A stretch of 64,000 bases of DNA from an uncultured Lachnobacterium sp. (GCA_964425905.1 CAYROM010000001.1:16671-80670), one strand, 5' to 3'. Numbered from the stretch's first letter, positions 28,907-64,000 are shown. Notes: a model not told the origin generated them from the sequence alone. Made by a program: numbers and translations.

Positions 28907-29899
28907 ATGGAAAGAACACTTAGCGTAATTGTACCAGCCTATAATGTTGAAAATTATATAGAGCGGTGTCTGGATTCCTTCTTAAATCTTCGGGCGCTGC
29001 GGGATATGGAGATATTGATCGTTGACGACGGCTCTACGGATCAAACGGCGGAGCTTGCCGAAAAGTACTGCCAGAAGTATCCGGATCAGTTCCGCCTGTT
29101 TTCCAGGGAAAATGGGGGACATGGATCGGCAGTCAACTATGGTATTCAAATTGCCTCGGGAAAATATTTGAAAGTAGTGGATGGAGACGACTGGCTGGAA
29201 CGGGAGGCGCTGCCGGAGTTTATCGCAACGCTTAAGTCGATCGAATCCGATGTGGTCGCAAACGATTTTGTGCGGGTTCTTGATACAAATGGGAAGGAAA
29301 AGAGACAGCGCGTTGCAAAAAACTCTTACCATTACCGGCGGGAATGGGGATTTGCGGAGGCAGTCAATGAGCCGATCATTCCGATCCAGGCAATGACGGT
29401 AAAAACGGAAATCTGGAGGAACAATCAGTTAAAAGTAGACGAAGACTGCTTTTATGAGGATCAGGAGTTTGTCCTGTATCCGATCCCTTACAGTACCACC
29501 GTATACTACGATCCTCTTGTGGTCTATCATTATCGGGTCGGAAGAGAGGGGCAGAGCATAGATATCCGTTCTTTACAGAAAAACAGAGAACAACATTTGC
29601 AGATCATCGAGGCATTGTTTGTCTACAACAGCAGATACAAGAATATCCCGCAATATAAAAAGCAATACTTAGAACAGGGAATTGCAGATATCGTGGACCG
29701 GCAGTACGGAATCTATATGTCATTGGGGAATACAGAGGGCATATTTGCCGAGATGAAAGCCTTTGATCAGCGGATTTTCCGGGAACATCCGGGGGTATAT
29801 ATGAGGACAAGGAGCCGGAGGGTAAGGCTGATCCGGAAAATGGATTTTCACGTTTGGCCGGCGCTGGTGAAACATGCCGCTGTGTTTTGGGAAAAATGA
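28907..29899 (+). CDS. Family 2 glycosyltransferase
   Basis: LSVIVPAYNVENYI and ILIVDDGSTD are GT2 signatures. Confidence 0.75.
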   Translation: MERTLSVIVPAYNVENYIERCLDSFLNLRALRDMEILIVDDGSTDQTAELAEKYCQKYPDQFRLFSRENGGHGSAVNYGIQIASGKYLKVVDGDDWLEREALPEFIATLKSIESDVVANDFVRVLDTNGKEKRQRVAKNSYHYRREWGFAEAVNEPIIPIQAMTVKTEIWRNNQLKVDEDCFYEDQEFVLYPIPYSTTVYYDPLVVYHYRVGREGQSIDIRSLQKNREQHLQIIEALFVYNSRYKNIPQYKKQYLEQGIADIVDRQYGIYMSLGNTEGIFAEMKAFDQRIFREHPGVYMRTRSRRVRLIRKMDFHVWPALVKHAAVFWEK

Positions 29900-29906
29900 G
29901 GTTGCT

Positions 29907-31346
29907 ATGTATAAGAAGATAAATCCGGGATGGATTAAGCACTGGGATTTTGAATTTTTAGATATCGTATGCCTTGAGATGGCGTTCTTTATTGCATATG
30001 GAATCCGCCATATTGATGTATTTCCGTATCTGCCGCGAATGTATATGCGTCTGAGCATTTTGCTCTTTGCCTTTGATCTTGTCGTTGTGTTTCTTTCGAA
30101 TAATTATAAGGGTATATTAGAGCGCAATAAGACGCAGGAGTTGTGGGCGGTGATTCAACATGTGACGGTTGTAGAGCTGCTGCTTCTTTTGTACGAGTAT
30201 GTTGTACAGGAATCTAATGAATTTTCCCGTACCGTATTTTTTCTGAGCTGGGGTGTTGGGACGATATTCTGTCTTGCAGGAAGGCTTGTGCTGAAAAAGA
30301 TGGTTCGCGCGAGGATCACTTCCGAGAAGAATCAGACCCGTATGATGGTTCTGGTATCCGGCCAACACGTTTATCCGTGCATTCACCAGCTATTGCGGAA
30401 GACATGGAGGAGTTATAAAATCAGCGCGATCGCGCTGCCAAACGATACGGAACACCATGACCGCATTGATGCGAATATTCCCATTTTATTCGGGAAAAAA
30501 CAGATGGTGGAATATGTCCGACAGGGAATTGTCGATGAGGTCTATATTGATACTTTTGTGAACCGGGAGGATTTAAACCAGCAGGTGGATCTGTTTTTGA
30601 GCATGGGGATCACCGTACACATCGGCATGGGATTTTTACCGGAAAATCTGCCGAATCAGATCGTGGAAAAGATGGGAGAAGCCTATGTGGTTACGACCGC
30701 GGTTAAGACGGCAAGCGGACTTCAGATTGCGCTAAAGAGGCTGATCGATATTGCAGGGGCGGTTGTTGGGCTGATTTTTACGGCGGTTATTTTTGTTTTT
30801 GTAGCGCCGGCGATAAAACTTGCGTCGCCCGGACCGATATTTTTCTCCCAGGAACGCATCGGAAAGAACGGACGCCCTTTTAAAATGTACAAGTTCCGCT
30901 CCATGCACGTCAATGCGGAGGCGCATCAAAAGGATTTGATGGATCAAAATGAGATGCAGGGACTGATGTTTAAGGTCGAGAACGATCCCCGTGTAATTGG
31001 GAGTGAGAAGGGGCCGGGGAAGGGAGTGGGAAATTTTATCCGCAGGACGAGTCTTGACGAATTTCCGCAGTTTTGGAATGTGTTAAAGGGAGAAATGAGT
31101 CTGGTTGGGACAAGGCCGCCCACAAAGGCGGAATATGAGCGGTATGCCCTGCACCATAAAATCCGCCTTTCCATGAAGCCCGGGATTACAGGACTTTGGC
31201 AGATCAGCGGAAGGAATGAGATTACTAATTTTGAGAAAGTGGTAGAGCTTGATACCGCATATATAGAGAATTGGTCATTGGTATTAGACATCAGGATACT
31301 GTTTTTGACTATCGGAACGGTGTTGAGCAGAAAGGGATCAAAGTAG
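29907..31346 (+). CDS. Polyprenyl-phosphate hexose-1-phosphate transferase, WbaP/CpsE type (full-length priming enzyme)
   Basis: N-terminal TM block and C-terminal Bac_transf motifs ([35 protein letters not shown]). Start ATG 29907 after GAGGTTG. Confidence 0.8.
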
Positions 31347-31347
31347 T

Positions 31348-32544
31348 ATGCAACATGTTTTTATCGTGGGAAGTAAGGGAATTCCCGCTGCGTATGGCGG
31401 CTTTGAGACATTTGTGGAGAAGCTGACGGCAGGCCGCAAGAGTGAGCAGATATGCTATCATGTATCGCGCCTTTCGGATAAGAACGGTGAGTATAAATAT
31501 AACGGGGCGAAATGCTTTGACGTCAAAGTGCCGCATATTGGGGCTGCCAAGGCGGTGTTCTACGATGTTACGGCCCTTAAAAGGAGTATCCGTTATGTAA
31601 GACAGATACAAAAAGAACAGACATTAAAGAAAGAGGGCGCGTCATCACGCCCTGTTTTCTATGTATTGGCATGTCGGATCGGCCCCCTTGCCGGACACTT
31701 TAAGAGAAAAATCCATCGGCTGGGCGGTGTGCTGTATGTCAATCCGGACGGGCATGAGTGGAAACGCTCGAAATGGAATGCGCTGATCCGAAGATACTGG
31801 AAATTTTCGGAAAAGCGGATGGTAAAGCATGCGGATCTGCTGATCTGTGACAGCAAAAATATTCAAAGCTATATTCAAAGCCGGTATCGCAGATATCATC
31901 CGAAAACAACATATATTGCCTATGGCTCGGATACAGAAGCTTCATCGATCAAGGACGGGGATTTGAAGTTTACAAAATGGCTGGAGGAAAAGAAATTAAG
32001 CCCCCAGAACTATTATCTGGTGGTAGGAAGATTTGTTCCGGAGAATAATTTCAGAACTATATTGCGGGAATTCTTAAATTCTGATTCAACAAAAAAGCTT
32101 GCGATTGTCGCGACGCCGAACGCAGCCCTTTACAGAGAATTGGAAGAGGAACTGCATTTTTCGCAGGATTCCCGTATTTGCTTTGTCGGAACTGTGTATG
32201 ATCAGGAACTATTAAAAAAAATACGTGAGAACGCATATGGGTACTTTCATGGACATGAGGTTGGGGGAACGAACCCAAGCCTGCTGGAAGCACTTGGAAG
32301 TACAAAATTAAATCTTCTTTTAAGAGTTGGATTCAATGAAGAGGTGGCGGAGGAGGCTGCCCTCTATTGGACGAAGGAAGACGGAGACCTTGCCGCATGT
32401 ATCCATCAGGCGGATCATATGGATGAGGCCGTAAGGGACGATTATGGACAAAGGGCAAAAAAGCGCATTCTGGATGCATATAGCTGGGACTATATTGTAG
32501 ACCAGTACGAATCACTTTTCCAAAATGTGGATAGTATGGTATAA
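31348..32544 (+). CDS. DUF1972-plus-GT4 glycosyltransferase (WchF-like, putative rhamnosyl/hexosyltransferase)
   Basis: An N-terminal KGIPA.YGGFET-type DUF1972 and a C-terminal GT4 fold. Confidence 0.6.
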
Positions 32545-32666
32545 TGTCCGCGAAGGCAAAAGTGAGCATACGGATATATCAGCAGGCGATGCTTGCATCA
32601 GCCGGATGATAATATCGAATGCGAACGCGCCCGCGAGCCCGGAAAACCGGAGGTTTTTCGGGACTT

Positions 32667-32696
32667 TTGCCGAAGCGTCGAAAGTTATGGTATAAT
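32667..32696 (+). promoter_or_regulatory. Possible internal promoter with extended -10
   Basis: TTGCCG at 32667-32672, 18-nt spacer, TGgTATAAT ending at 32696. Lies in the 200-bp gap upstream of the GtrB-like gene. Confidence 0.4.
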
Positions 32697-32745
32697 GTCG
32701 TCAGACATTATACCGCGCGAATGCGTTAGAAGAGAAGGAGATCCG

Positions 32746-33717
32746 ATGGATATCATCACGATTGTAGTTCCGTGTTATAACGAGGAAAGCAATGTTTTGC
32801 TTTTTTATGAAAATATTCAGAAAACTGCACAGTTGATGCCGCAGGCGGACTTACGGCTTCTTTTTGTGGATGACGGCTCAAAGGATGGAACCCTTGCGGC
32901 TTTTCGGAAACTCAGAGAGCGTGATCCGATGGTGGAATATATTTCCTTTTCAAGAAATTTCGGAAAGGAAGCGGCAATTTATGCAGGTTTAAGCAATGCA
33001 AAGGGCGACTATGTGGCCATTATGGACGCGGATCTGCAGGATCCGCCATCCCTGCTGCCGGATATGTACCGGGCGGTGGCCGAGGAAGGCTTTGATTCCG
33101 CCGCAACCCGACGGGTCAGCAGAAAGGGAGAGCCGCCGATCCGTTCCTTTTTTGCGAGAAGATTCTATCATATTATGAATAAAATCAGCGATGTGGAGCT
33201 GATGGACGGCGCGCGGGACTTTCGGCTGATGAACCGGAAATATGTGAACGCCCTTTTGAGTCTTCAGGAATATAACCGCTTTTCCAAAGGCCTTTACGGG
33301 TGGGTTGGATTTAAGACGAAATGGTTTGAATATGAGAATGTGGAGCGGGTGGCAGGAGAGACAAAATGGTCTTTTTGGAAGCTGCTTAAGTATTCTCTGG
33401 ATGGGATCGTAGCCTTTTCGGAAACGCCGCTCTATATAGCGTCCGTGCTGGGGACATTGATGTGCGGGATTTCTTTCGCGGCAATCATATTTATCATTAT
33501 CCGGCAATTGGTGTATCACAATTCCGTGTACGGCTGGTCCTCCATGGTATGTATTGTTATCCTGTTGGGCGGCATACAGCTGTTGGCAATCGGTATATTG
33601 GGGCTTTACTTTTCAAAGACTTATCTTGAGGTGAAGAGAAGACCTATTTATATTTCGAATGAAGCTGCGCTGGAATGTGCAGATAAAGCATCGGATGAAT
33701 TAAAAAAGTGTGAATAA
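32746..33717 (+). CDS. Polyprenyl-phosphate glycosyltransferase (GtrB/CsbB/ArnC-like GT2 with C-terminal TM helices)
   Basis: Start ATG 32746 after GGAGA. GT2 core ITIVVPCYNEE...FVDDGSKD and two C-terminal TM helices typical of Dpm1/GtrB. Confidence 0.7.
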   Translation: MDIITIVVPCYNEESNVLLFYENIQKTAQLMPQADLRLLFVDDGSKDGTLAAFRKLRERDPMVEYISFSRNFGKEAAIYAGLSNAKGDYVAIMDADLQDPPSLLPDMYRAVAEEGFDSAATRRVSRKGEPPIRSFFARRFYHIMNKISDVELMDGARDFRLMNRKYVNALLSLQEYNRFSKGLYGWVGFKTKWFEYENVERVAGETKWSFWKLLKYSLDGIVAFSETPLYIASVLGTLMCGISFAAIIFIIIRQLVYHNSVYGWSSMVCIVILLGGIQLLAIGILGLYFSKTYLEVKRRPIYISNEAALECADKASDELKKCE

Positions 33718-33747
33718 TAAAAATATTATAACCGGAGGAATCAAAAT

Positions 33748-34929
33748 ATGAAAATTACGGTAGCGGGAACCGGATATGTAGGGCTTTCCAATGCGATTCT
33801 TTTATCTCAGAATCATGAAGTGGCGGCTCTTGATATTGTACCGGAAAAAATCGAGATGCTGAACAAACGCATTTCGCCGTTGGTAGATAAGGAAATTGAA
33901 GAGTATCTGGCGAATAAGGATTTGAATCTTTGGGCAACACTAGATGTGCAGGAAGCGTTAAAAGGGTCAGAGTTTGTTATTATTTCTACTCCCACCAATT
34001 ATGATCCGGAAAAAAATTATTTTGATACTTCATCTGTGGAGGATATTATTGAAAAAGTATTAAAGTATAATCCTGCTGCGACTATGGTAATCAAATCTAC
34101 GATTCCGGTAGGGTATACAGAGCGAATTGCGAAAAAGTACAATATTAAGAATATTTTGTTTTCACCGGAGTTTCTTCGGGAGGGGAAAGCGCTATATGAT
34201 AATTTGTACCCTTCCAGAATCATTGTCGGGCAGACCGCGGATTCCGGTATGGAAGAAAAAAGGGAACAATTTGCAGAACTTTTAAAGGAGGGTGCGATCA
34301 AGGAAGATATTCCCACTCTTCTGATGAATACTACGGAGGCAGAAGCGGTTAAGCTTTTTGCCAACACCTATCTTGCTCTTAGGATTTCCTATTTCAATGA
34401 ACTGGATACCTATGCTGAGGTGAGAGGCTTAGATACAAAGCAGATCATCCAGGGGATCGGATTGGATCCGAGAATTGGAACACACTATAACAATCCTTCC
34501 TTTGGTTATGGCGGGTATTGTCTTCCGAAAGATACAAAACAGCTTCTGGCGAATTATGCGGATGTGCCAAACAACCTGATCGGCGCAATCGTAGACGCTA
34601 ATCGTACCCGAAAGGATTTTATTGCAGATCAGATCATTGCAAAGAAGCCAGGAACCGTGGGCGTATACCGATTAACTATGAAGTCAAATTCCGACAATTT
34701 CAGGCAGTCCTCTATTCAAGGAGTCATGAAACGAATTAAAGCAAAAGGAATTCCGGTAGTTGTCTATGAACCTGCATTAAAAGAGGAGGATTTCTTCGGA
34801 TCTAAGGTGATACGAGATCTGGAAGAATTCAAACAGATATCGGATGTAATTATTGCGAACCGCATGTCGCAGGATCTTTTGGAAGTAGAGGATAAAGTCT
34901 ATACCAGAGATTTATATCACGAAGATTAG
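33748..34929 (+). CDS. ugd: UDP-glucose 6-dehydrogenase
   Basis: [14 protein letters not shown] Rossmann start and catalytic-Cys context [12 protein letters not shown]. 393 aa. Confidence 0.85.
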
Positions 34930-34966
34930 TAGTACATGGTTTTTCAGGATCAGAGCAAAAGAAAGG

Positions 34967-35965
34967 GTGTTTATGCCGTTTTTGAGCATTTTTTATGAAT
35001 TTGGGATTCTGCCGTTTTTGCTTGGGATGTTGTGGTGCAGAAAAAAACAGGTGATGGGATTCCACAGTATCTACGTTCATGGATATATGACAATGTTTTC
35101 GATATTTTATCTTCTCGCTGTGCCATATATCGTTATAGGGAAAAGCCTGTCCGAACTTGTCCGCGCGTGGACGATAGTATTAGTTGCAGTTCCTGTTGTG
35201 TGGCTGGTTCAAATTTGCGCACATCGGCAGACATATATAGGGCAATTGCATTATCTGATTTGCAATATAAAAATTGCAATGGAGAAACTGCGCGGGATGA
35301 TGTGCCTGCTGGCCGTGCTGATCGTTTTTTCTACTGTGTGGGTGATTCCGTCCGTTGAGGATGATGTGCCGGAAATTGTGGGTATATCTATATATACGGA
35401 CACAATGTATGTATATCAGCCATACACGCAGATTCTGTATGCAGATAATCTGAAAAAAGCGCTATCGCCGATTGAAATGCTTTATGCCGCATCAGCAAAG
35501 ATTGCAAATATGGATTCAACGGTTATGATTCACATGTGTGTACCGATTTTTTTGATACCATTGTATGGGGCTGTTGGTTGGATGGTTTCAGAGTATTTCT
35601 TTAAGGATAGACTTCGAAATAGGAGTCTGTTTGAGATGCTTTGGATGATTACGGGTACTGCTGCGGTATGCTCAGTAAGGGCGCTTTCTATTGGGATATT
35701 GATGAACTCGTGGAATGGACTTACTTTGATTTCGGAATGCATACTGCCGATTGCCTTGATCGAAGGATTCGCGCTTTATGACGGGATCGTAAATCGAAAA
35801 AAAATTGATCATCAGAAGTTTTTATTTATAGTTATGATAATGATCGCGGCACAGCTTACGGTGGAAAAAGGAATGTTCTTAACATTGGCTATTATGGCGG
35901 TATGTCTGGGAATGGCATTGATTCGAAAAGGGTATAAGAATGTCGGCGTTATTCGAAAGCATTAG
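34967..35965 (+). CDS. Hypothetical polytopic membrane protein (first half of paralogous pair A)
   Basis: ~9 TM segments. Weak but consistent similarity to the 50081 protein. Confidence 0.45.
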   Translation: MFMPFLSIFYEFGILPFLLGMLWCRKKQVMGFHSIYVHGYMTMFSIFYLLAVPYIVIGKSLSELVRAWTIVLVAVPVVWLVQICAHRQTYIGQLHYLICNIKIAMEKLRGMMCLLAVLIVFSTVWVIPSVEDDVPEIVGISIYTDTMYVYQPYTQILYADNLKKALSPIEMLYAASAKIANMDSTVMIHMCVPIFLIPLYGAVGWMVSEYFFKDRLRNRSLFEMLWMITGTAAVCSVRALSIGILMNSWNGLTLISECILPIALIEGFALYDGIVNRKKIDHQKFLFIVMIMIAAQLTVEKGMFLTLAIMAVCLGMALIRKGYKNVGVIRKH

Positions 35966-36647
35966 GCTAGCCTGGAATAGTTACAGCATGACGACAATAA
36001 ATATGATTCTTTATTGGCTGGCTATGGTGTGGCTGTTCCTATTTGAAAAGAAGAAAAAAGAGAATATATTGTTTTGGTATGCTGCTTTTATTCCGGTTAT
36101 GCTGCTTTTAATGCAAATATCATGCTTTTATCTTTTACCGGGACGTTCTCTCGGGAAAATGTTCCTGCTGTTGCCCGTGGGGATTCTTATGAGTTACACC
36201 GCTGTAAGAATTGCGGAAAGCGGCAGGGGAACAAAAAAGACATGGATAATTGTGCTCCTCTATGCTATAATGATTCAAGCCGGAATTACAATGAGATATA
36301 ACAGTTCTGTATTGCAGGGAGGGCTGAACTGCTATAAGATTTCTCCAAGCGTGGAATGGATGGCATATTACATCGGAGAAGATGAAAAGCTGAATGAGCC
36401 CTATGTGCTTGCTCCGAGTCAGATTGCCAGTCAGATTCAGGAATATGATGCGAGCATCAGGGTGGCATATGGGGAAGGGTATTCATATACGGGGAAAGAT
36501 CTTGACGAACTTTTGACGGAAATGGATTCCGTTGGATGCAACTGCCTGATCGTTAGATATGATGAGGAAAAAGAGGAATACATTAAGCATAAGGGTTACC
36601 GTTTGATTGTGATCCATGATAATTACGCAATATATGCGAGGAAATAG
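35940..36647 (+). CDS. Hypothetical membrane protein with soluble C-terminal domain (second half of pair A)
   Basis: N-terminal TMs and a C-terminal domain that aligns with the 51149 product. Overlaps 34967 by 26 nt in a different frame. Confidence 0.45.
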   Translation: MSALFESIRLAWNSYSMTTINMILYWLAMVWLFLFEKKKKENILFWYAAFIPVMLLLMQISCFYLLPGRSLGKMFLLLPVGILMSYTAVRIAESGRGTKKTWIIVLLYAIMIQAGITMRYNSSVLQGGLNCYKISPSVEWMAYYIGEDEKLNEPYVLAPSQIASQIQEYDASIRVAYGEGYSYTGKDLDELLTEMDSVGCNCLIVRYDEEKEEYIKHKGYRLIVIHDNYAIYARK

Positions 36648-36649
36648 AA

Positions 36650-38527
36650 ATGAAAAGAGAAAAGATGAAATTTCATGAAAAACAGCTTCTGACAAGAAGA
36701 ATGATGTTAGGATTTTATGATATTGTGGCGGTAATTGCTTCCACATATTTTGCACTTTTGGCAAGATTTGATCTTTCAATGGTCGAAATTCCACCGGTAT
36801 ATTTAAATACGGCCTTAGATGCGCTAGTCCCCAATATAATTATTACATTGATCGTTTTTTATTTCTTTCGTCTGTATACAAGCCTATGGACTTATGCCGG
36901 AAGCACGGAGCTTATGTATATGATCGGCGGCTGTTTTATGGATACGTTTGTAAGCATGCTGTTTATCTTGTTACAGAATCGGGGGATTGCCAGCCCAATG
37001 CCGAGAAGTTATTATCTGTTCTACGGGGTTAGCCTGCTGGCGTTTACATTTGTAAGTAGATATTTTTACCGTCTGGCCCGTCTGTTTAAACGTGTCAAAA
37101 CAAATGATAAAAACAAGAAAAATGTACTCATAGTGGGCGCCGGAGAGGCAGGGGATGCCATTGTCAAAGAAATTAAAGACAGCAATTATATCGATTTAAA
37201 TATCGTTGGTCTGATAGATGATAATCCGAACAAACTTGGTAAATACATGCATGGGATCAAGGTCGTCGGATCGAGAGAAGCTATTCCGGAGGTCGCGGAG
37301 AGACTGAAGGTACAGGAGATCATTATTGCAATTCCGACGGCAACGGCACAGCAGATGAAGGATATCTTGGAAATCTGCAAGAGTACATGCTGTGAACTGA
37401 AACGTTTGCCGGGCATGTATCAGCTGGTAAACGGCGAGGTAAGTATCAGCAAATTAAAAGATGTCGATGTAAACGATCTGCTTGGGAGGGATCCGATCCG
37501 TGTTGATCTGGATTCGATTATGGGTTATGTTGCAGGAAAGGTGATACTTGTCACCGGAGGCGGCGGAACCATCGGAAGCGAACTTTGCCGCCAGATTGCA
37601 TCCCATAAGCCCAAACAGCTTATTATTTTTGATATTTATGAGAATTCTACTTATGATATTCAATTAGAGTTAAAACATAATTTTCCGGACCTTGATCTGG
37701 TGGTTGCCATTGGCTCGGTGCGCAATACACAGCGCGTAGACTGGCTTTTTTCCACATATCGTCCGGAGATCGTCTACCATGCGGCGGCGCATAAGCATGT
37801 TCCCCTTATGGAGGACAGTCCGAATGAAGCGATCAAGAATAATGTACTTGGAACATGGAAGATTGTGAAAGCTTCTGACCAGTATCGCGTGAAACGTTTC
37901 GTGATGATCTCTACTGATAAAGCGGTAAATCCGACGAATATCATGGGAGCGAGCAAGCGTATCTGTGAGATGATTATTCAGACTTATAATAATCATTCTC
38001 AGACAGAGTATGTTGCGGTTCGGTTTGGCAATGTTTTGGGAAGCAACGGAAGCGTTATTCCGATCTTTAAGAAACAAATTGCAGAAGGGGGACCGGTTAC
38101 CGTCACCCACCCGGATATCATTCGATATTTTATGACAATACCGGAGGCTGTTTCCCTTGTGCTTCAGGCCGGAGCTTATGCCAAAGGCGGAGAGATTTTT
38201 GTACTCGACATGGGGGAACCGGTCAAGATCCTTGATCTGGCAACGAACCTCATTCTTCTATCCGGTCATAAGCCAAACGAAGACATCATGATCGAATTCA
38301 CCGGACTTCGTCCCGGAGAGAAATTGTATGAAGAAATGCTGATGGATGAGGAAGGACTGCAGAATACGGCGAATAAACTGATTCATATCGGTAAGCCGAT
38401 TGAAATGGATGAGGAAAAATTTTTAGAGGAATTGCAGGAATTAGCAGACTATGTGGTCAAAGAACCTTCTGATATCCGGGCATGGGTACAGAAAATCGTT
38501 CCCACGTACGTTCCTGCTCAGAAGTAG
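36650..38527 (+). CDS. Polysaccharide biosynthesis protein CapD/WbpM/PglF family (membrane-anchored NDP-sugar 4,6-dehydratase)
   Basis: N-terminal TMs, then two Rossmann regions (LIVGAGEAG and LVTGGGGTIGSEL), then the SDR catalytic region. Confidence 0.8.
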   Translation: MKREKMKFHEKQLLTRRMMLGFYDIVAVIASTYFALLARFDLSMVEIPPVYLNTALDALVPNIIITLIVFYFFRLYTSLWTYAGSTELMYMIGGCFMDTFVSMLFILLQNRGIASPMPRSYYLFYGVSLLAFTFVSRYFYRLARLFKRVKTNDKNKKNVLIVGAGEAGDAIVKEIKDSNYIDLNIVGLIDDNPNKLGKYMHGIKVVGSREAIPEVAERLKVQEIIIAIPTATAQQMKDILEICKSTCCELKRLPGMYQLVNGEVSISKLKDVDVNDLLGRDPIRVDLDSIMGYVAGKVILVTGGGGTIGSELCRQIASHKPKQLIIFDIYENSTYDIQLELKHNFPDLDLVVAIGSVRNTQRVDWLFSTYRPEIVYHAAAHKHVPLMEDSPNEAIKNNVLGTWKIVKASDQYRVKRFVMISTDKAVNPTNIMGASKRICEMIIQTYNNHSQTEYVAVRFGNVLGSNGSVIPIFKKQIAEGGPVTVTHPDIIRYFMTIPEAVSLVLQAGAYAKGGEIFVLDMGEPVKILDLATNLILLSGHKPNEDIMIEFTGLRPGEKLYEEMLMDEEGLQNTANKLIHIGKPIEMDEEKFLEELQELADYVVKEPSDIRAWVQKIVPTYVPAQK

Positions 38528-38538
38528 AATTTGGAGAT

Positions 38539-39180
38539 ATGAAAATGGAATTTTCAACATCACAAAAAGTATATAGTGTGGTTAAGCGCTGTATGGATTT
38601 TTTGTTTGCACTGATTGGAGTGATTTTGTTAAGCTGGCTGCTGCTGATTTTATGTGTTGCCATTAAAATTGACAGCAGAGGGCCGGTTTTGTTTAAACAG
38701 AAGAGGGTTGGAATACATAAGACACATTTTTTGATATTAAAATTTCGCACCATGAAAATTGATACACCGAAGGATATGCCGACGCATATGCTGGAGAATC
38801 CGGATCAGTATATTACACGGGTGGGAAAGTTCCTTCGCAAGAGCAGTCTGGATGAATTGCCGCAGATTTTTAATATTCTTATGGGAAAGATGAGCATCGT
38901 GGGACCTCGGCCGGCATTGTGGAATCAATTTGATTTAATCGAGGAGCGGGATAAATACGGAGCAAATGACGTTACTCCCGGAATGACCGGGTGGGCTCAG
39001 GTAAACGGCCGCGATGAGTTGGAAATTCCGGTAAAGGCAAGGCTGGACGGCTATTATGTGCAGCATTATGGGTTTGGCATGGATGTAAAGTGCTTCTTTA
39101 AGACAATTGCCGCGGTTCTATCCCGTGATGGAATAGTGGAAGGCGGTACAGGCAATCGGAAGAATGAGGAACAGAAATGA
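38539..39180 (+). CDS. Small monotopic phosphoglycosyltransferase (PglC/WcaJ-C-terminal type sugar transferase)
   Basis: Single N-terminal TM, then [37 protein letters not shown]. Start ATG 38539 after GGAGA. Confidence 0.8.
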
Positions 39181-40088
39181 AGCGAATACTGATAACAGGA
39201 GCCAACAGTTATGTTGGCACCTCATTTGAAAAGTGGATGCAGCAGTATGCAGAGTATGAAGTTGATACAATTGATATGATTGATGGGGAGTGGCGTAATA
39301 AAAGTTTTTCAGGACATTATGCCATTTTTCACGTTGCGGGCTTGGCACATGCCGACATTACAAATGTCTCGGATGAGGTGAAGGAAAAATATTATGCCAT
39401 CAATTGTGATATGGCAATCGAGACTGCAAAAAAGGCAAAGGCGGACGGCGTGCAGCAGTTTATTTTTATGAGCAGCATGTCGGTTTACGGGGAGAGCGCC
39501 CCGGTGGGAAAGCAGCGGATTATTACCGCAGATACGCCAGCCTCTCCGGCGAATTTTTACGGGGACAGTAAGGTTCAGGCGGAAAAGGGTCTGCTGGAAT
39601 TAAATGATGTGTCGTTTAAGGTTGTCATTCTAAGGCCGCCGATGGTGTATGGAAAGGGGAGCAAAGGAAACTTTCCCACGCTGGAAAAGTTTGCAAAAAC
39701 ACTTCCGGTCTTTCCGTCAATAAAAAACGAGCGTTCTATGATCTTTGTCAATAATCTCTGCGAATTTGTGCATTTAGCGATTGAGCGCGAGATTAGCGGA
39801 ATTTTTTATCCACAGAATGCAGAATATGTAGTGACTGCTAAAATGGTAGAAAAAATAGCTGCTGAGCACCACAAACACATTTGGGTAACGCCTGTTTTTA
39901 ACTGGGCGATCTATTTGATCTCAAGAACACCGGGACAATACGGAAAATTGTGCAACAAAGCATTTGGGAGCTTGGTTTATGAAAAGGATTTGTCAGAGGG
40001 ACCGATCAAGGTTTCCGAGTACCAGACGGTAAGCTTTGAGGAATCTATAAGACTTACCAGAGCAGATGAAGAGGAAAGAGTCAAATGA
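39177..40088 (+). CDS. NAD-dependent epimerase/dehydratase family protein
   Basis: [14 protein letters not shown] Rossmann start. 303 aa SDR-extended. Confidence 0.65.
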   Translation: MKRILITGANSYVGTSFEKWMQQYAEYEVDTIDMIDGEWRNKSFSGHYAIFHVAGLAHADITNVSDEVKEKYYAINCDMAIETAKKAKADGVQQFIFMSSMSVYGESAPVGKQRIITADTPASPANFYGDSKVQAEKGLLELNDVSFKVVILRPPMVYGKGSKGNFPTLEKFAKTLPVFPSIKNERSMIFVNNLCEFVHLAIEREISGIFYPQNAEYVVTAKMVEKIAAEHHKHIWVTPVFNWAIYLISRTPGQYGKLCNKAFGSLVYEKDLSEGPIKVSEYQTVSFEESIRLTRADEEERVK

Positions 40089-40834: not shown

Positions 40835-40857
40835 TGATTTTAATTAAAGGAACCGCT

Positions 40858-43330: not shown

Positions 43331-43333
43331 AAA

Positions 43334-44287: not shown

Positions 44288-44289
44288 CG

Positions 44290-45471: not shown

Positions 45472-45482
45472 AGAGGTCACAT

Positions 45483-46325: not shown

Positions 46326-46352
46326 ATAGAAGGGAAAGGAAAGTGAGATACT

Positions 46353-48673: not shown

Positions 48674-48683
48674 AGGAGTTTTT

Positions 48684-50078: not shown

Positions 50079-50080
50079 GA

Positions 50081-51874: not shown

Positions 51875-51875
51875 T

Positions 51876-53045: not shown

Positions 53046-53046
53046 T

Positions 53047-54054
53047 ATGAAAAACTATTTGATAACATGGTTCTATTCGGAACAGGCAAACGATGAGAGC
53101 TATTATCCGTCCGTGGGAGGGAGCAGCAGCAGCGCGGAATTTCAGTATGTGTACTGGAGATGCATCTATGTATTTTATCGTTTTGCATTGATTGCGAACC
53201 GGGATGTGGTAACGGACTTTATGTTTTTTACAAACGTGGAGAATCTTCCTACGGTGGACGGGATAAATTTTAAGAACTTCTTTGAGGAGAACCATATCAG
53301 GGTCGTACATCAGGAACTGACAAGAAAGACGCCGAAGGATTGGTACGGGGCATGGAGAAATCAATTCTATTTGTTTGACATTCTTGATCATTTCAAAGAA
53401 GCGGATGGCAATATCCTGATTTTGGATTCAGACTGTGTGATCAACGGGAATCTGCAGGGCCTGTATGACGAGATCAATGAGAAGGGAATTCTGACGCTTC
53501 CGATCGACTACTCCGAAAACCGGGAGATCAACGGCTGCTCCATTGCGCAGATGAGGGATATCTACCGACAGATCTTTTGCACGCAAAAAGCGGACGGGCT
53601 TTTATATATGGGAGGGGAGTTTGTCGCTCTTCGCGGAGACAGGATCGCTTCCCTTATGGAAGTATTCGAGACGATCTGGGCGAAGAATTATGAATTATAT
53701 GAGCAAAAAGTCCGGAAATTAAATGAGGAGGCCCATGTGCTGTCCCTGTGTTACTATTATCTTGACGGACAGAATGAAGCGGGAAGAAAATATATTCGGC
53801 GGATCTGGAACTCGCTAAACTGCAATCAGGTGAAGACGAGCGATCTTGCGCTTCCGATCTGGCATCTGCCGGCGGAGAAGAAATTTGGGTTTAAAGAGCT
53901 TTTCCGCAAACTAAAGACAAAGAAGGAAATTTCGAAAGAAGAACTGTACCGTCTGAGTAATCGGGCAATGAAGCTGTCCTGCTCAAAGACGTGGAGAAAG
54001 ATTTGTTGGTACTTACGGTACGGGAAACAGAAAATATGCAAAATTCGAGGATGA
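53047..54054 (+). CDS. Hypothetical protein, possibly a glycosyltransferase (DxD-like ILILDSDCV)
   Basis: 335-aa ORF with RBS GGTGGATGG. Confidence 0.35.
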   Translation: MKNYLITWFYSEQANDESYYPSVGGSSSSAEFQYVYWRCIYVFYRFALIANRDVVTDFMFFTNVENLPTVDGINFKNFFEENHIRVVHQELTRKTPKDWYGAWRNQFYLFDILDHFKEADGNILILDSDCVINGNLQGLYDEINEKGILTLPIDYSENREINGCSIAQMRDIYRQIFCTQKADGLLYMGGEFVALRGDRIASLMEVFETIWAKNYELYEQKVRKLNEEAHVLSLCYYYLDGQNEAGRKYIRRIWNSLNCNQVKTSDLALPIWHLPAEKKFGFKELFRKLKTKKEISKEELYRLSNRAMKLSCSKTWRKICWYLRYGKQKICKIRG

Positions 54055-54829: not shown

Positions 54830-55933
54830 ATGAAACCAATTAGAATTTTACATGTCATAGACTGCATAAGTCCAAATAGTGGTGTGAGTGCAGTAGTAAT
54901 GAACTATTATGAGCATCTAAATAAAGGAGATGTAATTTTTGATTTTCTTGTCTACTATGATGTTGAACCTGAGATAGAAAAACGTCTCCTTGAGAATGGA
55001 TCGAGGGTTTATGTGGTTGGGGCAGCAGTAGCTGGTAATCTTAAAAATTATTATCGATGCCTTAAGAAATTTTTTGCGGTTCATTCTAATGAATATGAAA
55101 TTATTCACGGACATGTTACAAATTCCGCCCTGTTTTATCTTGGTCTGGCAAAAAAATATGGAATTCCTGTACGAATTTTGCATGGGCATAATACGCGCGG
55201 GGCGGATACGGCATTAAAGAGAATGCGTAATTATATTTTAAATCATTTGGGGATAAGATATGCAACCAATTTTGCCGCATGTTCATATGCCGCAGCGAAG
55301 TATTTACATGGTACCAGTAAAAATGTTATAATAATACGAAATGCAATAGAGACTGACAATTATAAATATAACGAGGATAAGCGAAAGTTTATCAGAGAAG
55401 AATTGGGAATAACTGATAGATACGTTATAGGACATGTAGGAAGATTTGCTAAGCAGAAGAATCATGATTTTATCATTGAACTTGCAAAAAAAATGAAGTG
55501 TTTCGATGAAAAAGTATTATTTCTTCTTGTTGGGGATGGAGAATATCGGGACAATATAGAAAAAAAGGTAAACGATAATGGATTGAAAAACATTTTTCTT
55601 TTTGTCGGAACCGTTAACAATACTTGCGACTATTTTCAAGCAATGGATGTGTTTGTGTTACCGTCGTTGTTTGAGGGATTTCCTGTGGTGGGAGTGGAAG
55701 CACAGTGCAATGGGCTTAAATGTATATTTTCAAGTAATGTAACAGAGGAGGCAAAGGTACTGGATGAAACGCAGTATATTTCTTTAGATGATATGGATAG
55801 CTGGGTAGATGTGCTTTTGCATTGTAGAAATTCGAGAAATGTTAGCTCTGTGCAGAAAATAAAGGATTGTAATTTGGAAATTGAAGCAGAAACTCATAAA
55901 CTTCAGAATTATTATGCGAAATTGCTGAAATGA
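54830..55933 (+). CDS. Family 4 glycosyltransferase
   Basis: MKPIRILHVI and the C-terminal VLPSLFEGFPVVGVEAQCNGLKCIFS. Confidence 0.7.
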   Translation: MKPIRILHVIDCISPNSGVSAVVMNYYEHLNKGDVIFDFLVYYDVEPEIEKRLLENGSRVYVVGAAVAGNLKNYYRCLKKFFAVHSNEYEIIHGHVTNSALFYLGLAKKYGIPVRILHGHNTRGADTALKRMRNYILNHLGIRYATNFAACSYAAAKYLHGTSKNVIIIRNAIETDNYKYNEDKRKFIREELGITDRYVIGHVGRFAKQKNHDFIIELAKKMKCFDEKVLFLLVGDGEYRDNIEKKVNDNGLKNIFLFVGTVNNTCDYFQAMDVFVLPSLFEGFPVVGVEAQCNGLKCIFSSNVTEEAKVLDETQYISLDDMDSWVDVLLHCRNSRNVSSVQKIKDCNLEIEAETHKLQNYYAKLLK

Positions 55934-56718
55934 GGGAAAAAATGTTTAGAAGAATAAAAGGCTTTTATAAATATAGATTTCTTTTGAAAGAGTTGGTCAG
56001 CAGAGATTTTAAATTAAAGTATAGACGTTCTGTATTAGGATATGCTTGGAGTTTATTAAATCCGTTGTTTACTATGCTCGTAATGACTGCTGTTTTCTCT
56101 AATATCTTTAGATTTAGTATAGAGAATTTTCCTGTTTATTTTTTATTGGGGCAGGTGATGTGGACATTCTTTTCTGATGGGACTAATACTGCCATGACAT
56201 CCGTGTTCGGAAATGCAGAATTGATTAAAAAGGTTTATGTTCCTAAATATATGTTTCCGTTAGCAAAAGTATGTTTTTCATTTGTTAATATGATATGCTC
56301 ACTTGGGGCAGTTATCATAGTGATGGTTATACAAAAAGTTCGGGTTACATGGACCATTGTTCTACTGCCGATTCTTTTCTTTTATGCATTCCTTATTGTG
56401 TTGGGAGTGGGATTGGTTCTATCAGTAGCTGCAGTCTATTTTAGAGATTTACTCCATCTTTATGGTGTTTTGTTGGTTGCTCAGATGTACCTTACTCCAT
56501 TGTTTTATCCGGTTGAAATTTTGCCGGAATGGGTATTTAATATTGTAAAATGCAATCCGGTATATTATTTGGTTGAATATTTCAGGAAAATCGTATTATA
56601 TGGGACATGGCCTACAATTCAGGAAAATCTTATATGCTTTGGCTTTGGAATTGGATTTATGTTAATTGGAGTTGGTGTATTTATGAGGCAGCAGAAAAAA
56701 TTTATTCTTTATATATAG
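55930..56718 (+). CDS. ABC-2 type polysaccharide/teichoic-acid export permease (Wzm/TagG/KpsM-like)
   Basis: Cytoplasmic N-terminus (LVSRDFKLKYRRSVLGYAWSLLNP) and six TM segments. 262 aa. Confidence 0.8.
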   Translation: MREKMFRRIKGFYKYRFLLKELVSRDFKLKYRRSVLGYAWSLLNPLFTMLVMTAVFSNIFRFSIENFPVYFLLGQVMWTFFSDGTNTAMTSVFGNAELIKKVYVPKYMFPLAKVCFSFVNMICSLGAVIIVMVIQKVRVTWTIVLLPILFFYAFLIVLGVGLVLSVAAVYFRDLLHLYGVLLVAQMYLTPLFYPVEILPEWVFNIVKCNPVYYLVEYFRKIVLYGTWPTIQENLICFGFGIGFMLIGVGVFMRQQKKFILYI

Positions 56719-56733: not shown

Positions 56734-57468
56734 ATGAATGCGGTTGAAGTAGAAAATTTGACAATTCGATTCAATTTGGCTTCGGAACAGATTACAAGCC
56801 TAAAGGAGTATGTGATTAAACTGGCAAAGAGGCAGCTTAGTTTTCAGGAGTTCTTTGCGCTTAAGGATGTTTCCTTTAAGGTGCCACAGGGAGATTCGGT
56901 TGGACTTGTGGGGGTGAATGGATCCGGAAAGAGCACTTTGCTAAAGGCAATTGCAGGGATATATCCGCCGCATAAAGGTACAGTTAAGGTAAATGGAGTA
57001 GTGGCTCCCCTTATTGAGTTGGGGGCCGGGTTTGATGGTCAATTGACCGCCAGAGAAAATGTTTTTTTAAATGGTTCCTTGTTTGGATATGACAGAAAAT
57101 TTATGGAAAGCAAATTTGATGAAATAATTGAATTTGCTGAGCTTTGGGATTTTGTGGACGTTCCTGTGCGAAATTATTCGTCCGGAATGGCTGCAAGATT
57201 GGGATTTTCTGCTGCGACAATTGTGAAACCGGATATACTTATCTGTGATGAAGTACTTTCTGTGGGAGATATGCGATTTCAAAAAAAATGTGAGGAAAAA
57301 ATGGCGGAGCTTATGGGGAATGGGACGACATTGCTATTTGTTTCCCATTCTATTGATCAGGTTTGTAAGGTTTGTAAACATGCAATTTGGCTGGATCACG
57401 GAGTAATTCGAAAAAAAGGAGAAGTCAATGAAGTTTGTGAAGAGTATAAAAAGGAAGTGATGGGATAA
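56734..57468 (+). CDS. ABC polysaccharide export ATP-binding protein (Wzt/TagH/KpsT-like)
   Basis: Walker A GVNGSGKST, the signature region, and Walker B ILICDE. 244 aa, with no C-terminal carbohydrate-binding extension. Confidence 0.8.
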   Translation: MNAVEVENLTIRFNLASEQITSLKEYVIKLAKRQLSFQEFFALKDVSFKVPQGDSVGLVGVNGSGKSTLLKAIAGIYPPHKGTVKVNGVVAPLIELGAGFDGQLTARENVFLNGSLFGYDRKFMESKFDEIIEFAELWDFVDVPVRNYSSGMAARLGFSAATIVKPDILICDEVLSVGDMRFQKKCEEKMAELMGNGTTLLFVSHSIDQVCKVCKHAIWLDHGVIRKKGEVNEVCEEYKKEVMG

Positions 57469-59676: not shown

Positions 59677-59704
59677 TATAATTTATTGAGGGAGGAGTCG
59701 TTTG

Positions 59705-60502: not shown

Positions 60503-60531
60503 CATTTCTTAATTTTTATTGGGAGGAAAAG

Positions 60532-61629: not shown

Positions 61630-61640
61630 CGGGGGATACA

Positions 61641-62048: not shown

Positions 62049-62111
62049 TTGGAATGAATTCTTCTAAGTGTAAAAATGATATGTCGAATCAAGCTTTTTG
62101 GAGAAAAAATT

Positions 62112-63572
62112 ATGTTAAAAAAATTAATGGAAAAAGGTGTGGATTATATTAAGGAATCTCGGAAAATTAACTTATTATTGACTCGTTTTTTTCCATTTGT
62201 GTTTGCCTTTTTACTATGCTTTATATTTTTATTAAGAATTGATAATATGATAGATTTATCAATGGATGCTAGCGATATATGGATGACTGTAAAATCCTAT
62301 TATAAAGAGGATACATATGCTTCATATGTATTGTACAAAGGTATTTTTTCGGTCTATCCATATGTATGGCTGTATCAATTCACACTTTTATTAGGGGTGG
62401 GAGAGTTTTTCTTTATCAAAGTATTCCATTCGCTTCTCTTTGCTTATATTGTGGGAGTTGGTTTTCCGTACATTTTTGAATTTATTTTGGGAAGGAAAAT
62501 TCCTACATGGAAAAAGATAATATATATAGTAATTATATTTTGGCTGCAAATAAATAATTTGGCATATATTCAAATTGTAATAGATCTGCCATATTTGTTT
62601 TGGTTTACGTTGATGATACACTCATATTTAAAGTTGAAATCCCAATCATCAAAACACAAAATTTTGATATATATGCTGCTGGGAGCGGCCATAGGATGTT
62701 GCACTTGTTTTACGGGGCAATACAAATTCTCCGCAATCTTAATTTTGATATTAGTTGGATATGATTTGATAAAACAATTAAGGAAATCTGACCTTTACCG
62801 CTGGATAGGCAGTATTTTTATTATCGTCGTTATGGTAGGCGGTGTGGTGATGGCAGAACATGCTTTCCAGACCAGAGTGGTAGATGGATTTAGGCAGGAG
62901 GGGGCGTGGATACCAACGGCAGATGACTGGGTACAAAATTTCTTAAGACAGGAAAAGCCAAAATCGGCCGCGGTATACCTAAAGGGCGGTCAAATAATAG
63001 ACTATCAAATTACCGCAATCCATGCAAATGAGGAACCGGAGTATGAGGGTTTATTGGGTACGATGGAAATTTTTGCAGAATATATAAGAGTTGGATTAAA
63101 GCACCCGGCAGAATTGGTCATCAGTTATGCGAATAAGTTTTTTTTGGCTTTTTTGTGTGGCAATACATGTAATTTCTTTTATATTTTTGCGCACTATTCG
63201 TTGCTATTTATTGGGATATGGACAATCAAGTGCAGAAAATGTTTAAATAAACAAAATTTAGGAATTTTTATATCTATTTTAGTCTCTATTTTGGTTCCAT
63301 GTGTTACACATATGGAGTCGAGGTATGCGATGGCATTACAAAACTTTGTTTATGGATTTGCAATATTGGATAGCAGATTGATTTCGGAGATTAAAATCGG
63401 AATATTGCGTTTAAAGAGAAAAAACCAGAAAGATAAGCTGCTGGTGAATCAATGGACCGGATGGACAACATTTTTGTATCTGTGTTTTATAATTATGTGT
63501 ATGATGTTGGTATCATCATTTATGGTAAGTTGCGGTTTGGAGAATGGAACATGGTACTTGTTTGAATATTAA
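62112..63572 (+). CDS. Hypothetical polytopic membrane protein (candidate flippase, polymerase or GT-C; family unclear)
   Basis: ~12 TM segments. Start ATG 62112 after GGAGAAAAAATT. AT-rich. Confidence 0.4.
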   Translation: MLKKLMEKGVDYIKESRKINLLLTRFFPFVFAFLLCFIFLLRIDNMIDLSMDASDIWMTVKSYYKEDTYASYVLYKGIFSVYPYVWLYQFTLLLGVGEFFFIKVFHSLLFAYIVGVGFPYIFEFILGRKIPTWKKIIYIVIIFWLQINNLAYIQIVIDLPYLFWFTLMIHSYLKLKSQSSKHKILIYMLLGAAIGCCTCFTGQYKFSAILILILVGYDLIKQLRKSDLYRWIGSIFIIVVMVGGVVMAEHAFQTRVVDGFRQEGAWIPTADDWVQNFLRQEKPKSAAVYLKGGQIIDYQITAIHANEEPEYEGLLGTMEIFAEYIRVGLKHPAELVISYANKFFLAFLCGNTCNFFYIFAHYSLLFIGIWTIKCRKCLNKQNLGIFISILVSILVPCVTHMESRYAMALQNFVYGFAILDSRLISEIKIGILRLKRKNQKDKLLVNQWTGWTTFLYLCFIIMCMMLVSSFMVSCGLENGTWYLFEY

Positions 63573-63596
63573 ATTGCATAAAGGAGTTTCTATGAT

Positions 63597-64000
63597 ATGA
63601 AAATTGTAATTTTAGCGGGTGGACTTGGAACCAGAATTTCAGAAGAGTCGCAATTTAAACCTAAACCGATGATTGAAATTGGTGGGATGCCAATACTTTG
63701 GCATATTATGAAAGAGTATTCCTATTATGGTTTTTATGAATTTATTATTTGCGCGGGATATAAGCAGCATCTGATTAAAGAATGGTTTGCTGATTATTAT
63801 CTGCATACATCAGACGTTACATTTGATTTTGCGAACGGCAATCAGATGACAATTCACAATCAACATGTGGAACCATGGAGAGTCACGATCGTTGATACGG
63901 GATATAATACGATGACGGGTGGAAGAATCAAACGGGTTCGTCCATATATTGGGGATGAGGCTTTCATGATGACATATGGAGATGGAGTCTGCGATGTCAA
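63597..64000 (+). CDS. rfbF: Glucose-1-phosphate cytidylyltransferase (RfbF-like), partial. The 3-prime end is beyond the window.
   Basis: [56 protein letters not shown] aligns almost residue-for-residue with Salmonella RfbF. RBS AAAGGAG. Confidence 0.7.

Follow-up and report, generated by a model that had tools for sequence, protein, structure and literature searches.

Which polysaccharide is built by a locus that encodes two priming enzymes together with the parts of two assembly routes, and does it make one glycan or two? The question is raised by the genes from position 28907 onward in a stretch of 64,000 nucleotides from an uncultured Lachnobacterium sp. (GCA_964425905.1, CAYROM010000001.1:16671-80670). 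This whole stretch is called the window; all positions refer to it, and genes are named by the start coordinate of their open reading frame (ORF), e.g., 48684. The base methods were ORF listing, profile scans with Pfam and NCBIfam/TIGRFAM, membrane-helix prediction, profile searches of the PDB, and AlphaFold models compared by Foldseek. The block is probably the principal locus for cell-wall or surface polysaccharide in a Lachnospiraceae bacterium of the Agathobacter/Roseburia/Lachnobacterium group, with three modules and two routes, at a lineage-wide hotspot behind glmM and the gene for HPr. An original prediction, made from the sequence alone, had proposed two concatenated glycan assembly lines: two routes are indeed encoded side by side, but the sequence does not decide between one and two glycans.

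Between 28907 and 64000, the ORF listing and gap count gave 33 complete genes and one gene cut by the window end, all on the plus strand; the whole set is devoted to glycan synthesis. The block lies directly behind cdaA (24880), cdaR/YbbR (25808), glmM (27262) and HPr; a continuous same-strand block of about 35 genes in this place had been predicted. Neighbouring genes overlap or lie at most ~60 nt apart, with the exception of ~50-156 nt at 32545-32700, and minus-strand ORFs are short and nested within plus-strand genes. In scans for terminators and promoters the numbers of hits were close to those of shuffled sequence, and none between genes was convincing. At the module borders neither mobile elements nor long repeats were found, only short matches of chance size. 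The glycosyltransferase (GT) tally of about 14, as predicted, resolved into seven GT2 (28907, 32593, 40085, 43334, 54062, 57474, 58432), five GT4 (31348, 42065, 44290, 51828, 54830), 45444 as a transferase of the DUF115 type and 53032, possibly a GT-A enzyme. GlmM is 80-90 % identical to that of genomes labelled Agathobacter, Roseburia, Lachnobacterium and Lachnospiraceae, thus the host is a Gram-positive gut or rumen member of the Lachnospiraceae. The wording of Wzy, Wzz and O-antigen in the original prediction suits Gram-negative bacteria; a wall-anchored polysaccharide is the better model for this host.

The modular structure emerged from a comparison with 80 related glmM-anchored loci, of which 10 kb downstream were viewed. 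In all 80 (80/80), glmM-HPr is followed by same-strand glycan genes, and most have a priming enzyme and the Wzm/Wzt pair of an ATP-binding cassette (ABC) exporter within 2-10 kb. The loci of the closest species (L011-L014, L044) continue behind HPr with a WbaP-like gene (68-76 % identity), Cps2T (64-71 %) and a GtrB-like gene (75-79 %). In L011-L014 this head is followed by Wzm/Wzt, with Ugd (85 %) before the exporter in L012 and L013 and a DUF6077 pair after it in L012; no middle cassette was present within the 10 kb fetched. From this gene order, the head is normally paired with an ABC exporter; in relatives where Wzm/Wzt follows, the WbaP-like gene is 74-76 % identical. From the WbaP-like gene to the homologue of 53032, the locus L094/L093 of a separate genome (GCA_965296865.1) agrees with the window in gene order, at 57-93 % identity; beyond it come different genes, namely those of a second dehydrogenase, of an epimerase resembling WecB and of a transferase of 531 aa. 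Another locus (L095) is a close variant of the middle cassette without PglF. The homology of L093 ends at window position 54054, exactly where the GC content drops from ~0.46 to ~0.35: all genes from 54062 on have a GC content of 0.32-0.40 versus 0.41-0.47 upstream, and the GC skew, strongly positive along the full length of the window (GC ~45 %), rises from 54062 on. This is consistent with a recent acquisition of the last module, which is specific to this strain. Three modules are therefore distinguished, 28907-36647, 36650-54054 and 54062 onward.

A strain-level breakpoint lies inside the first module. Contigs of other samples match 21403-32545 at ~94-95 % nucleotide identity and diverge right after the Cps2T stop codon; 31348 closes the stretch that the strains have in common. 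The first gene of the locus (28907) was found in other strains of the species; the closest other species do not have it there. All short-read contigs from other samples end ~20 bp past the 32545 junction. An exact junction search of metagenome contigs gave no match for an alternative sequence beyond 32545, and a Cps2T-based scan for the continuation in other strains found nothing closer than 64 % identity. Exact-product look-ups for 62076 (the longer start of 62112), 48684 and 54062 returned no record; those with the shorter start 62112 and with neighbouring genes returned matches. Conservation of the whole block across relatives, against which the predicted variability had been set, was not seen: the block is modular and variable, with borders at 32545 and 54054. 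As a side observation, the 32545 breakpoint lies within a promoter-like TTTCCA-17-TATAAT with an upstream TG (TG-n-TATAAT), and a second such site occupies 32667-32696; both are consensus matches only.

The predicted pair of different priming transferases, a WbaP-type (29907) and a small PglC-type enzyme (38539), was borne out. Both genes carry the Bac_transf domain (3.8e-65 and 1.5e-60) with the Asp-Glu dyad, and share 31 % identity. The N-terminal helices and CoA_binding_3 domain of the large form occur in 29874 and not in 38482, and 29874 scored 394 bits with TIGR03025 (cut-off 295). The small enzyme is 88 % identical in L093. Most likely, judged from synteny, the WbaP-type enzyme works in the ABC line and the small one in the Wzy-like line. 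In the first module, the WbaP-type enzyme would put hexose-1-phosphate on undecaprenyl phosphate, yielding undecaprenyl-diphosphate-hexose, the Cps2T-type enzyme would add rhamnose, and Ugd would supply UDP-glucuronate. As a correction to the original prediction, 32593 is no ordinary chain-building GT2. It is homologous over its full length to GtrB of Synechocystis (5ekp, 2.6e-69 over residues 55-357) and to ArnC (4e-34); its best curated match is PgfS (2e-99), yet under the 500-bit cut-off of that model. Because of this homology and the two C-terminal membrane helices near residues 285 and 318, 32593 is assigned to the synthesis of a lipid-phosphate-linked sugar, not to chain extension. An enzyme of the GtrB/PgfS type points to sugar addition outside the membrane, for which 32593 would provide the donor.

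The middle cassette is opened by a PglF-type dehydratase which, together with the reductase of the short-chain dehydrogenase/reductase (SDR) type, would yield a 6-deoxy-N-acetylhexosamine (6-deoxy-HexNAc): 39177 probably reduces the 4-keto-6-deoxy-HexNAc made by 36650. Bacillosamine is an unlikely product, since no aminotransferase gene is near the two enzymes. Ugd, the CapD/PglF-like dehydratase and the epimerase had all been named in the original prediction and were recovered by profile searches. The small PglC-like enzyme would start a second lipid-linked repeat unit with the 6-deoxy-HexNAc, to be extended by up to seven proteins in the order GT2, GT4, GT2, GT4, DUF115, GT4 and the 53032 protein. 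A flippase, none of which was recognised in the window, would move the unit outward, and the Wzy_C-related protein would polymerise it on the outer face under a co-polymerase of the Wzc fold with a dead kinase.

Two membrane helices of this co-polymerase-like protein, 48684, lie around residues 23 and 281; Pfam gave no match, the Wzz model included. Only seven homologues were detectable among 5.8 billion protein clusters. The best PDB match of the family profile was a CapA1-CapB1 chimera (E=0.012), aligned over the junction of membrane protein and kinase. The AlphaFold2 (AF2) model, with a mean confidence (pLDDT) of 79, retrieved Wzc for all top 28 Foldseek matches in the PDB (~1e-8), followed by CapAB and isolated kinase domains of Wzc and BceF. 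A Walker A motif (G-x4-GK[ST]) is absent from 48684 and its seven homologues, and their last 25 residues hold 0-1 tyrosines; an active bacterial tyrosine kinase (BY-kinase) was ruled out on these grounds. The locus encodes no separate kinase or phosphatase. The predicted Wzz-like co-polymerase was upheld at the level of fold; more precisely, the model describes 48684 as a co-polymerase of the polysaccharide co-polymerase 2 (PCP-2)/Wzc type with a degenerate kinase domain. A protein of the Wzc fold whose outer domain is intact, beside a candidate polymerase, is the usual signature of chain-length control. In place of Walker A, the fused kinase-like domain carries a conserved SGSE stretch.

Between the transferases lies a trio of genes for a DUF115 transferase, a KdsB-type cytidylyltransferase and an aldolase. 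The DUF115 domain of 45444 matched PF01973 at 1.4e-13. KdsB (46353) scored above three curated cut-offs, including NF009905 (299 bits, cut-off 255) and TIGR00466 (168.5 bits, cut-off 155), and 47078 matched HMGL-like (4e-14), with a Bacteroides "putative aldolase" and 4-hydroxy-2-oxovalerate aldolases as closest solved relatives. KdsA, KdsC and KdsD are absent. Maf enzymes with a DUF115 domain have been demonstrated to transfer sialic acid and Kdo (3-deoxy-D-manno-octulosonate) from CMP donors (bioRxiv 10.1101/2020.06.03.131540), and Kdo genes in a Firmicute were earlier called unexpected, the canonical genes being present in that case (PMC4744853). A CMP-activated, Kdo-like acid is probably attached by the DUF115 enzyme of the cassette. 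As a fixed unit, the trio found no support: in other Cps2T-anchored loci the aldolase homologue (33 %) occurs without KdsB or DUF115. Its neighbours there are RfbF-like, 4,6-dehydratase, DegT-like, dehydroquinate (DHQ)-synthase-like and thiamine pyrophosphate (TPP) enzymes. As the aldolase homologue keeps different neighbours in other loci, a role of 47078 in ulosonic-acid synthesis is speculative, and so is an aldolase route to a Kdo-like acid via the trio.

The low-GC module encodes the exporter. Wzm (55930) matched ABC2_membrane (PF01061, 2.1e-19); its best solved kin are Wzm of A. aeolicus (4.6e-15), TarG and the mycobacterial galactan Wzm, and the NCBIfam galactan Wzm model scored 1.2e-18, under its equivalog cut-off. 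Wzt (56734) matched ABC_tran (3.6e-22), with TagH (3.8e-67, 2.7e-60) and galactan Wzt (6e-62) leading in NCBIfam, all under the equivalog cut-offs. With 244 aa, Wzt has no glycan-binding C-terminal domain. Profile searches did not move the pair to another ABC family, and the predicted ABC-2 exporter stands. Such a pair would export a lipid-linked polymer completed in the cytoplasm: the TuaG-like GT2, the GT4 and the two further GT2 probably extend the chain, and an LCP enzyme encoded elsewhere would attach the exported chain to the wall. A reading of 58432 as a second GtrB-type enzyme was not supported, as it has generic GT2 matches only.

Downstream of the exporter, the predicted FdtC/FdtB/FdtA-like genes and the RfbF-like gene were upheld by solved homologues and TIGR02623. 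The acetyltransferase matched QdtC (3fs8) at 8e-107 and the aminotransferase QdtB (3frk) at 3.7e-154, and the isomerase 61641 is closer to FdtA (2pa7, 3.9e-48; FdtA profile 5.5e-54) than to QdtA (6e-37). Consequently, the predicted sugar is a 3-acetamido-3,6-dideoxyhexose of gluco or galacto configuration. These genes would supply it and the neighbouring 62112 would add it on the outer face, where the DUF6077 pairs may perhaps also transfer sugars. None of the 32 homologues of 62112 has a Pfam domain. Its model is confident (pLDDT 86; predicted TM-score, pTM, 0.88), and the leading Foldseek matches, at a reported probability of 0.9-1.0, are nearly all GT-C enzymes: Pmt4, STT3, Pmt1/Pmt2, AftA, AftB and EmbA/B. 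Asp52, an aspartate of the first outer loop just behind membrane helix 1, does not vary among 31 homologues. On the basis of the model, 62112 is a GT-C-like transferase that putatively uses a lipid-linked donor. It had been offered as a flippase candidate; a Wzx function was rejected in favour of this fold, the sole MOP/MATE match having a probability of 0.09. Fdt/Qdt enzymes are known with dTDP substrates, whereas RfbF belongs to CDP-glucose synthesis; here, the RfbF gene at 63597 lies directly downstream of the Fdt/Qdt genes and the 62112 region. In a distant Cps2T-anchored locus (L126, 14356-21146) an RfbF-like gene is followed by genes for a 4,6-dehydratase, a DegT-like protein, a homologue of the HMGL-like enzyme, a DHQ-synthase-like protein and a TPP enzyme, an order which suggests a branched or extended CDP-sugar pathway.

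Several observations weigh against two complete routes in a lineage-wide hotspot. The Pfam scan of all genes in 1-64000 gave no match to Wzx/MOP, MurJ, MATE, Polysacc_synt or GtrA, while the same scan recognised a canonical Wzx in L126; the absence of a separate Wzx had already been noted in the original prediction. Thus the Wzy-like line has no identified flippase. Neither an LCP ligase nor rmlABCD genes were present anywhere in the 64 kb; in the window, the rhamnose and Fdt/Qdt steps are therefore without precursor genes, RmlA and RmlB for the latter included. The RfbF gene is cut by the window end, so the locus runs on past 64000, and a Wzx may lie there or elsewhere in the genome. The predicted Wzy-like polymerase (40858) is a polytopic protein distantly related to Wzy_C, but its own Pfam match is weak (E=0.025). 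Among 845 relatives found by an exhaustive profile search, 8 of 57 sampled (14 %) matched Wzy_C, at best with 2.2e-6, a low share, and one of the 57 matched EpsG, weakly; the family profile had no match in the PDB. The assignment is plausible, helped by the adjacent Wzc-like gene, and the protein could be a ligase instead of a polymerase. In three relatives (L019, L029, L034) a small priming enzyme and not a WbaP-type enzyme precedes Wzm/Wzt, which renders the assignment of primers to routes insecure. The Foldseek E-values of 62112 are modest (2.6e-3 and weaker), with TM-scores of ~0.4. Finally, the 10-kb view of the relatives leaves room for a middle cassette further along.

The two DUF6077 pairs bear on the missing flippase. 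Each DUF6077 gene is translationally coupled to that of a ~240-aa partner, which has a soluble C-terminal domain besides 3-4 membrane helices. As distant paralogues, the pairs are 22-24 % identical; they recur in the related loci L012, L094 and L095 and have a nearly invariant Asp-rich motif in a predicted outer loop. The membrane protein 34967 had been named as a flippase candidate; as a DUF6077 protein it has no detectable link to any flippase. Comparisons with the 62112 and Wzy-like families gave no signal (hhalign probabilities of 0.3 % and 1.8 %), the PDB profile search returned chance-level matches to a malate transporter only, a low-stringency Pfam scan was uninformative, and a literature search retrieved no paper mentioning the family. 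In a cassette without a classical Wzx, DUF6077 and its partner might form a new family of flippases for lipid-linked glycans or of outer-face transferases and, separately, the KdsB/aldolase/DUF115 trio might lead, by way of its aldolase and with no need of KdsA, KdsC or KdsD, to a CMP-activated Kdo-like acid for a Gram-positive wall glycan; we regard this as a long shot.

The strongest competitor of a locus with two routes is a single composite polymer, in which, on the pattern of Lactococcus lactis (rhamnan and pellicle) and of the enterococcal polysaccharide antigen (EPA) of Enterococcus faecalis, a GT-C-type enzyme (62112 or a DUF6077 pair) would join the Wzy-like product outside the cell to an ABC-exported, wall-anchored backbone. 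The packing of the block like one operon, without terminators between genes, agrees with such a polymer, as do the presence of a GT-C-fold and a GtrB-type enzyme and of a Wzz/WpsH-like protein accompanying the polymerase-like protein; the same logic is found in the published model of rhamnose cell-wall polysaccharides (Rha-CWPS) (PMC9574508). The covalent link is, however, putative, rhamnosyltransferases of the RgpA/B/F type and a TagO-type initiation were not found in the locus, and the position of 62112 beside the Fdt/Qdt genes fits the decoration with a single sugar better than the transfer of a whole polymer. A composite polymer is a possible but doubtful outcome.

Alternatively, only the ABC route might build a polymer. 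In that case 40858 would be a WaaL-like ligase or inactive, 48684 a scaffold, and the cassette would provide a short lipid-linked oligosaccharide for transfer onto protein or wall. The Wzy_C domain spans ligases as well as polymerases, the match of 40858 is weak, 48684 has none of the nucleotide-binding motifs in its kinase domain, no Wzx is encoded in the window, and PgfS, the best curated match of 32593, stems from a streptococcal protein glycosylation system. Against this stand the Wzc-fold protein, which three genomes conserve beside the candidate polymerase and whose outer domain is intact, and the number of transferases in the cassette, enough for a large repeat unit. We consider a pure ABC polymer improbable and continue to prefer two routes, one Wzy-like and one ABC-dependent.

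The genome is assembled from a metagenome, and short-read contigs of the source sample (SRR10165007), which match the window at 100 %, break near 32565/32696, 38985 and 59555. A supercluster falsely joined from strain modules, with which these breaks and the difference of other strains from 32545 on would agree, is very unlikely: an independent 20.6-kb contig of the source sample crosses ~38977-59569 including the junction at the GC drop (54054), L092 covers 32696-38993, the gene order of the separate genome L094 agrees from the WbaP-like gene to the end of the middle cassette, and no break shows in coding strand, gene spacing or GC skew.

Table 1 Features of the polysaccharide locus and its upstream anchor in the 64,000-nt window
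Feature	Start	End	Strand	Support and remarks
HPr-family gene, 87 aa	28625	28888	+	PF00381 on identical product; with glmM the conserved upstream anchor
GT2 glycosyltransferase, first locus gene	28907	29899	+	Glycos_transf_2 4.3e-34
WbaP/WcaJ-type polyprenyl-phosphate hexose-1-phosphate transferase (priming enzyme 1)	29874	31346	+	likely start 29907
Cps2T/WchF-type beta-1,4-rhamnosyltransferase (GT4)	31348	32544	+	NF046071 582.5 bits (cut-off 500); DUF1972 6e-78
Junction of conserved and variable parts, longest non-coding gap in the locus	32517	32700	+	two promoter-like sites with extended -10
GtrB/ArnC/PgfS-type polyprenyl-phosphate glycosyltransferase	32593	33717	+	GT2 domain, then two C-terminal membrane helices
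UDP-glucose 6-dehydrogenase (Ugd)	33748	34929	+	three UDPG_MGDP_dh domains; TIGR03026 329 bits (cut-off 190)
DUF6077 pair, copy 1: membrane protein (34967-35965) and overlapping 235-aa partner (35940-36647)	34967	36647	+	PF19554 7.8e-36
Membrane-anchored PglF/CapD-type UDP-HexNAc 4,6-dehydratase, opens cassette	36650	38527	+	Polysacc_synt_2 6.5e-122; four N-terminal helices
Small PglC-like phosphoglycosyltransferase (priming enzyme 2), 232 aa, single-domain	38482	39180	+	Bac_transf 1.5e-60; DELPQ motif; likely start 38539
SDR epimerase/reductase	39177	40088	+	Epimerase 1e-18; RmlD_sub_bind 2.5e-13
GT2 glycosyltransferase	40085	40834	+	Glycos_transf_2 9.5e-31
Polytopic protein distantly related to Wzy_C, candidate polymerase	40795	42087	+	likely start 40858; ~9-10 membrane helices
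GT4 (42065), GT2 (43334), GT4 (44290)	42065	45471	+	Pfam matches
DUF115/MptE-like transferase (45444), KdsB-type cytidylyltransferase (46353), 531-aa HMGL-like aldolase (47078)	45444	48673	+	profiles
Co-polymerase-like protein, PCP-2/Wzc fold	48684	50078	+	two membrane helices, outer domain between them, cytoplasmic kinase-like domain
DUF6077 pair, copy 2: 50051-51148 and abutting 241-aa partner (51149-51874)	50051	51874	+	PF19554 1.3e-70
GT4 (51828) and 340-aa possible GT-A with DSD motif (53032), cassette end	51828	54054	+	profile and motif; L093 homology stops here
TuaG-like GT2 (54062) and GT4 (54830), module start	54062	55933	+	Glycos_transf_2 1.5e-42; TuaG 4.8e-80, below cut-off
Wzm permease (55930-56718) and Wzt ATPase (56734-57468), ABC-2 glycan exporter	55930	57468	+	profiles, solved relatives
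Two GT2 glycosyltransferases (57474, 58432)	57474	59676	+	Pfam; 58432 with two C-terminal membrane helices
QdtC/FdtC-like acetyltransferase, QdtB/FdtB-like aminotransferase, FdtA-type 3,4-ketoisomerase (61641)	59702	62048	+	solved homologues
486-aa polytopic membrane protein, GT-C glycosyltransferase fold	62112	63572	+	AF2 model and Foldseek
5' half of glucose-1-phosphate cytidylyltransferase (RfbF)	63597	64000	+	TIGR02623 9.6e-67, profile positions 1-133 of 255

Upstream of the locus, 1-24000 holds housekeeping genes, among others those for FtsX, a CtpA-type protease, release factor 2 (RF2), homoserine dehydrogenase and an FGGY-family sugar kinase. Just upstream of cdaA (22103-24835), a ComF-like phosphoribosyltransferase/zinc-ribbon gene is accompanied by two small genes and by one for a 349-aa protein without Pfam match, all of which are kept in the other strains.

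Lachnospiraceae of the Agathobacter/Roseburia group are abundant butyrate producers of the gut. Surface glycans probably determine phage attachment, immune recognition and strain differences in these bacteria, and a literature search retrieved no description of a wall-polysaccharide locus of this kind for Lachnospiraceae. The module map anchored at glmM-HPr, with the strain-level breakpoint at 32545 and a second one at 54054, may be used for the glycotyping of strains from metagenomes and for the choice of mutants. Leads for enzymology are the DUF6077 pairs, the Wzc-like protein with its dead kinase and the KdsB/aldolase/DUF115 trio.

Among known systems, the outer-face glycosylation systems (GtrA/B/V, ArnC/ArnT, GacI-L, CsdA/B, PgfS/M1/E/M2) resemble the locus in the homology of 32593 and in the GT-C fold of 62112 with its invariant aspartate. 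They differ in that the locus has no GtrA or Wzx partner, the polytopic neighbour of 32593 being a DUF6077 protein; as they lie 28 kb apart, 32593 and 62112 may not be partners. The slg clusters for S-layer glycans in Geobacillus, Aneurinibacillus and Thermoanaerobacterium share a Gram-positive ABC route primed by a WbaP-like enzyme and the Fdt/Qdt genes for dTDP-3-acetamido-3,6-dideoxyhexose, and the closest solved homologues originate from those organisms. In contrast to slg, our locus has neither an S-layer protein gene nor a WsaB-type oligosaccharyltransferase with a clear Wzy_C domain beside the exporter. The streptococcal Wzy-dependent cps clusters (CpsE/WchA-Cps2T/WchF; CpsC/CpsD) are similar in the WbaP/CpsE-type gene directly followed by Cps2T/WchF and in a PCP-2-type protein. 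However, the head is joined in the closest relatives to an ABC exporter and not to Wzx/Wzy, a CpsB phosphatase and an active CpsD kinase are lacking, and the kinase-like domain, without Walker A, is fused to the co-polymerase.

Closest among the known systems are the Rha-CWPS loci, i.e., cwps of L. lactis, epa of E. faecalis and rgp/gac/scc of streptococci, in which an ABC-exported backbone, a Wzx/Wzy-like side polymer, the Wzz-like WpsH and a decoration by GtrB-type and GT-C enzymes occur together (PMC9574508). The locus differs from them in its initiation by Bac_transf-family enzymes instead of TagO/WecA-type enzymes or WpsA/B, in the lack of RgpA/B/F-type enzymes, rml genes, Wzx and LCP ligase, with one Cps2T-type rhamnosyltransferase only, in the dead kinase domain of its co-polymerase and in its host, a member of the clostridial family Lachnospiraceae. 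The likeness comprises the large co-directional arrangement of conserved and strain-variable parts, the ABC-2 exporter (RgpC/D-like) for a chain built in the cytoplasm, a second lipid-linked unit with its own initiating enzyme, a polytopic candidate polymerase and a two-helix Wzz-like protein resembling WpsH, the outer-face sugars predicted to be added via GtrB-type and GT-C-fold enzymes, and the variable segments of low GC content (PMC9574508). By analogy, the locus would work like the Rha-CWPS loci without being a member of this group, as it has no polyrhamnose enzymes, rml genes or TagO-type initiation. This suggests that the bipartite logic of the lactococcal and enterococcal wall polysaccharides extends, with different initiating enzymes, to clostridial gut commensals.

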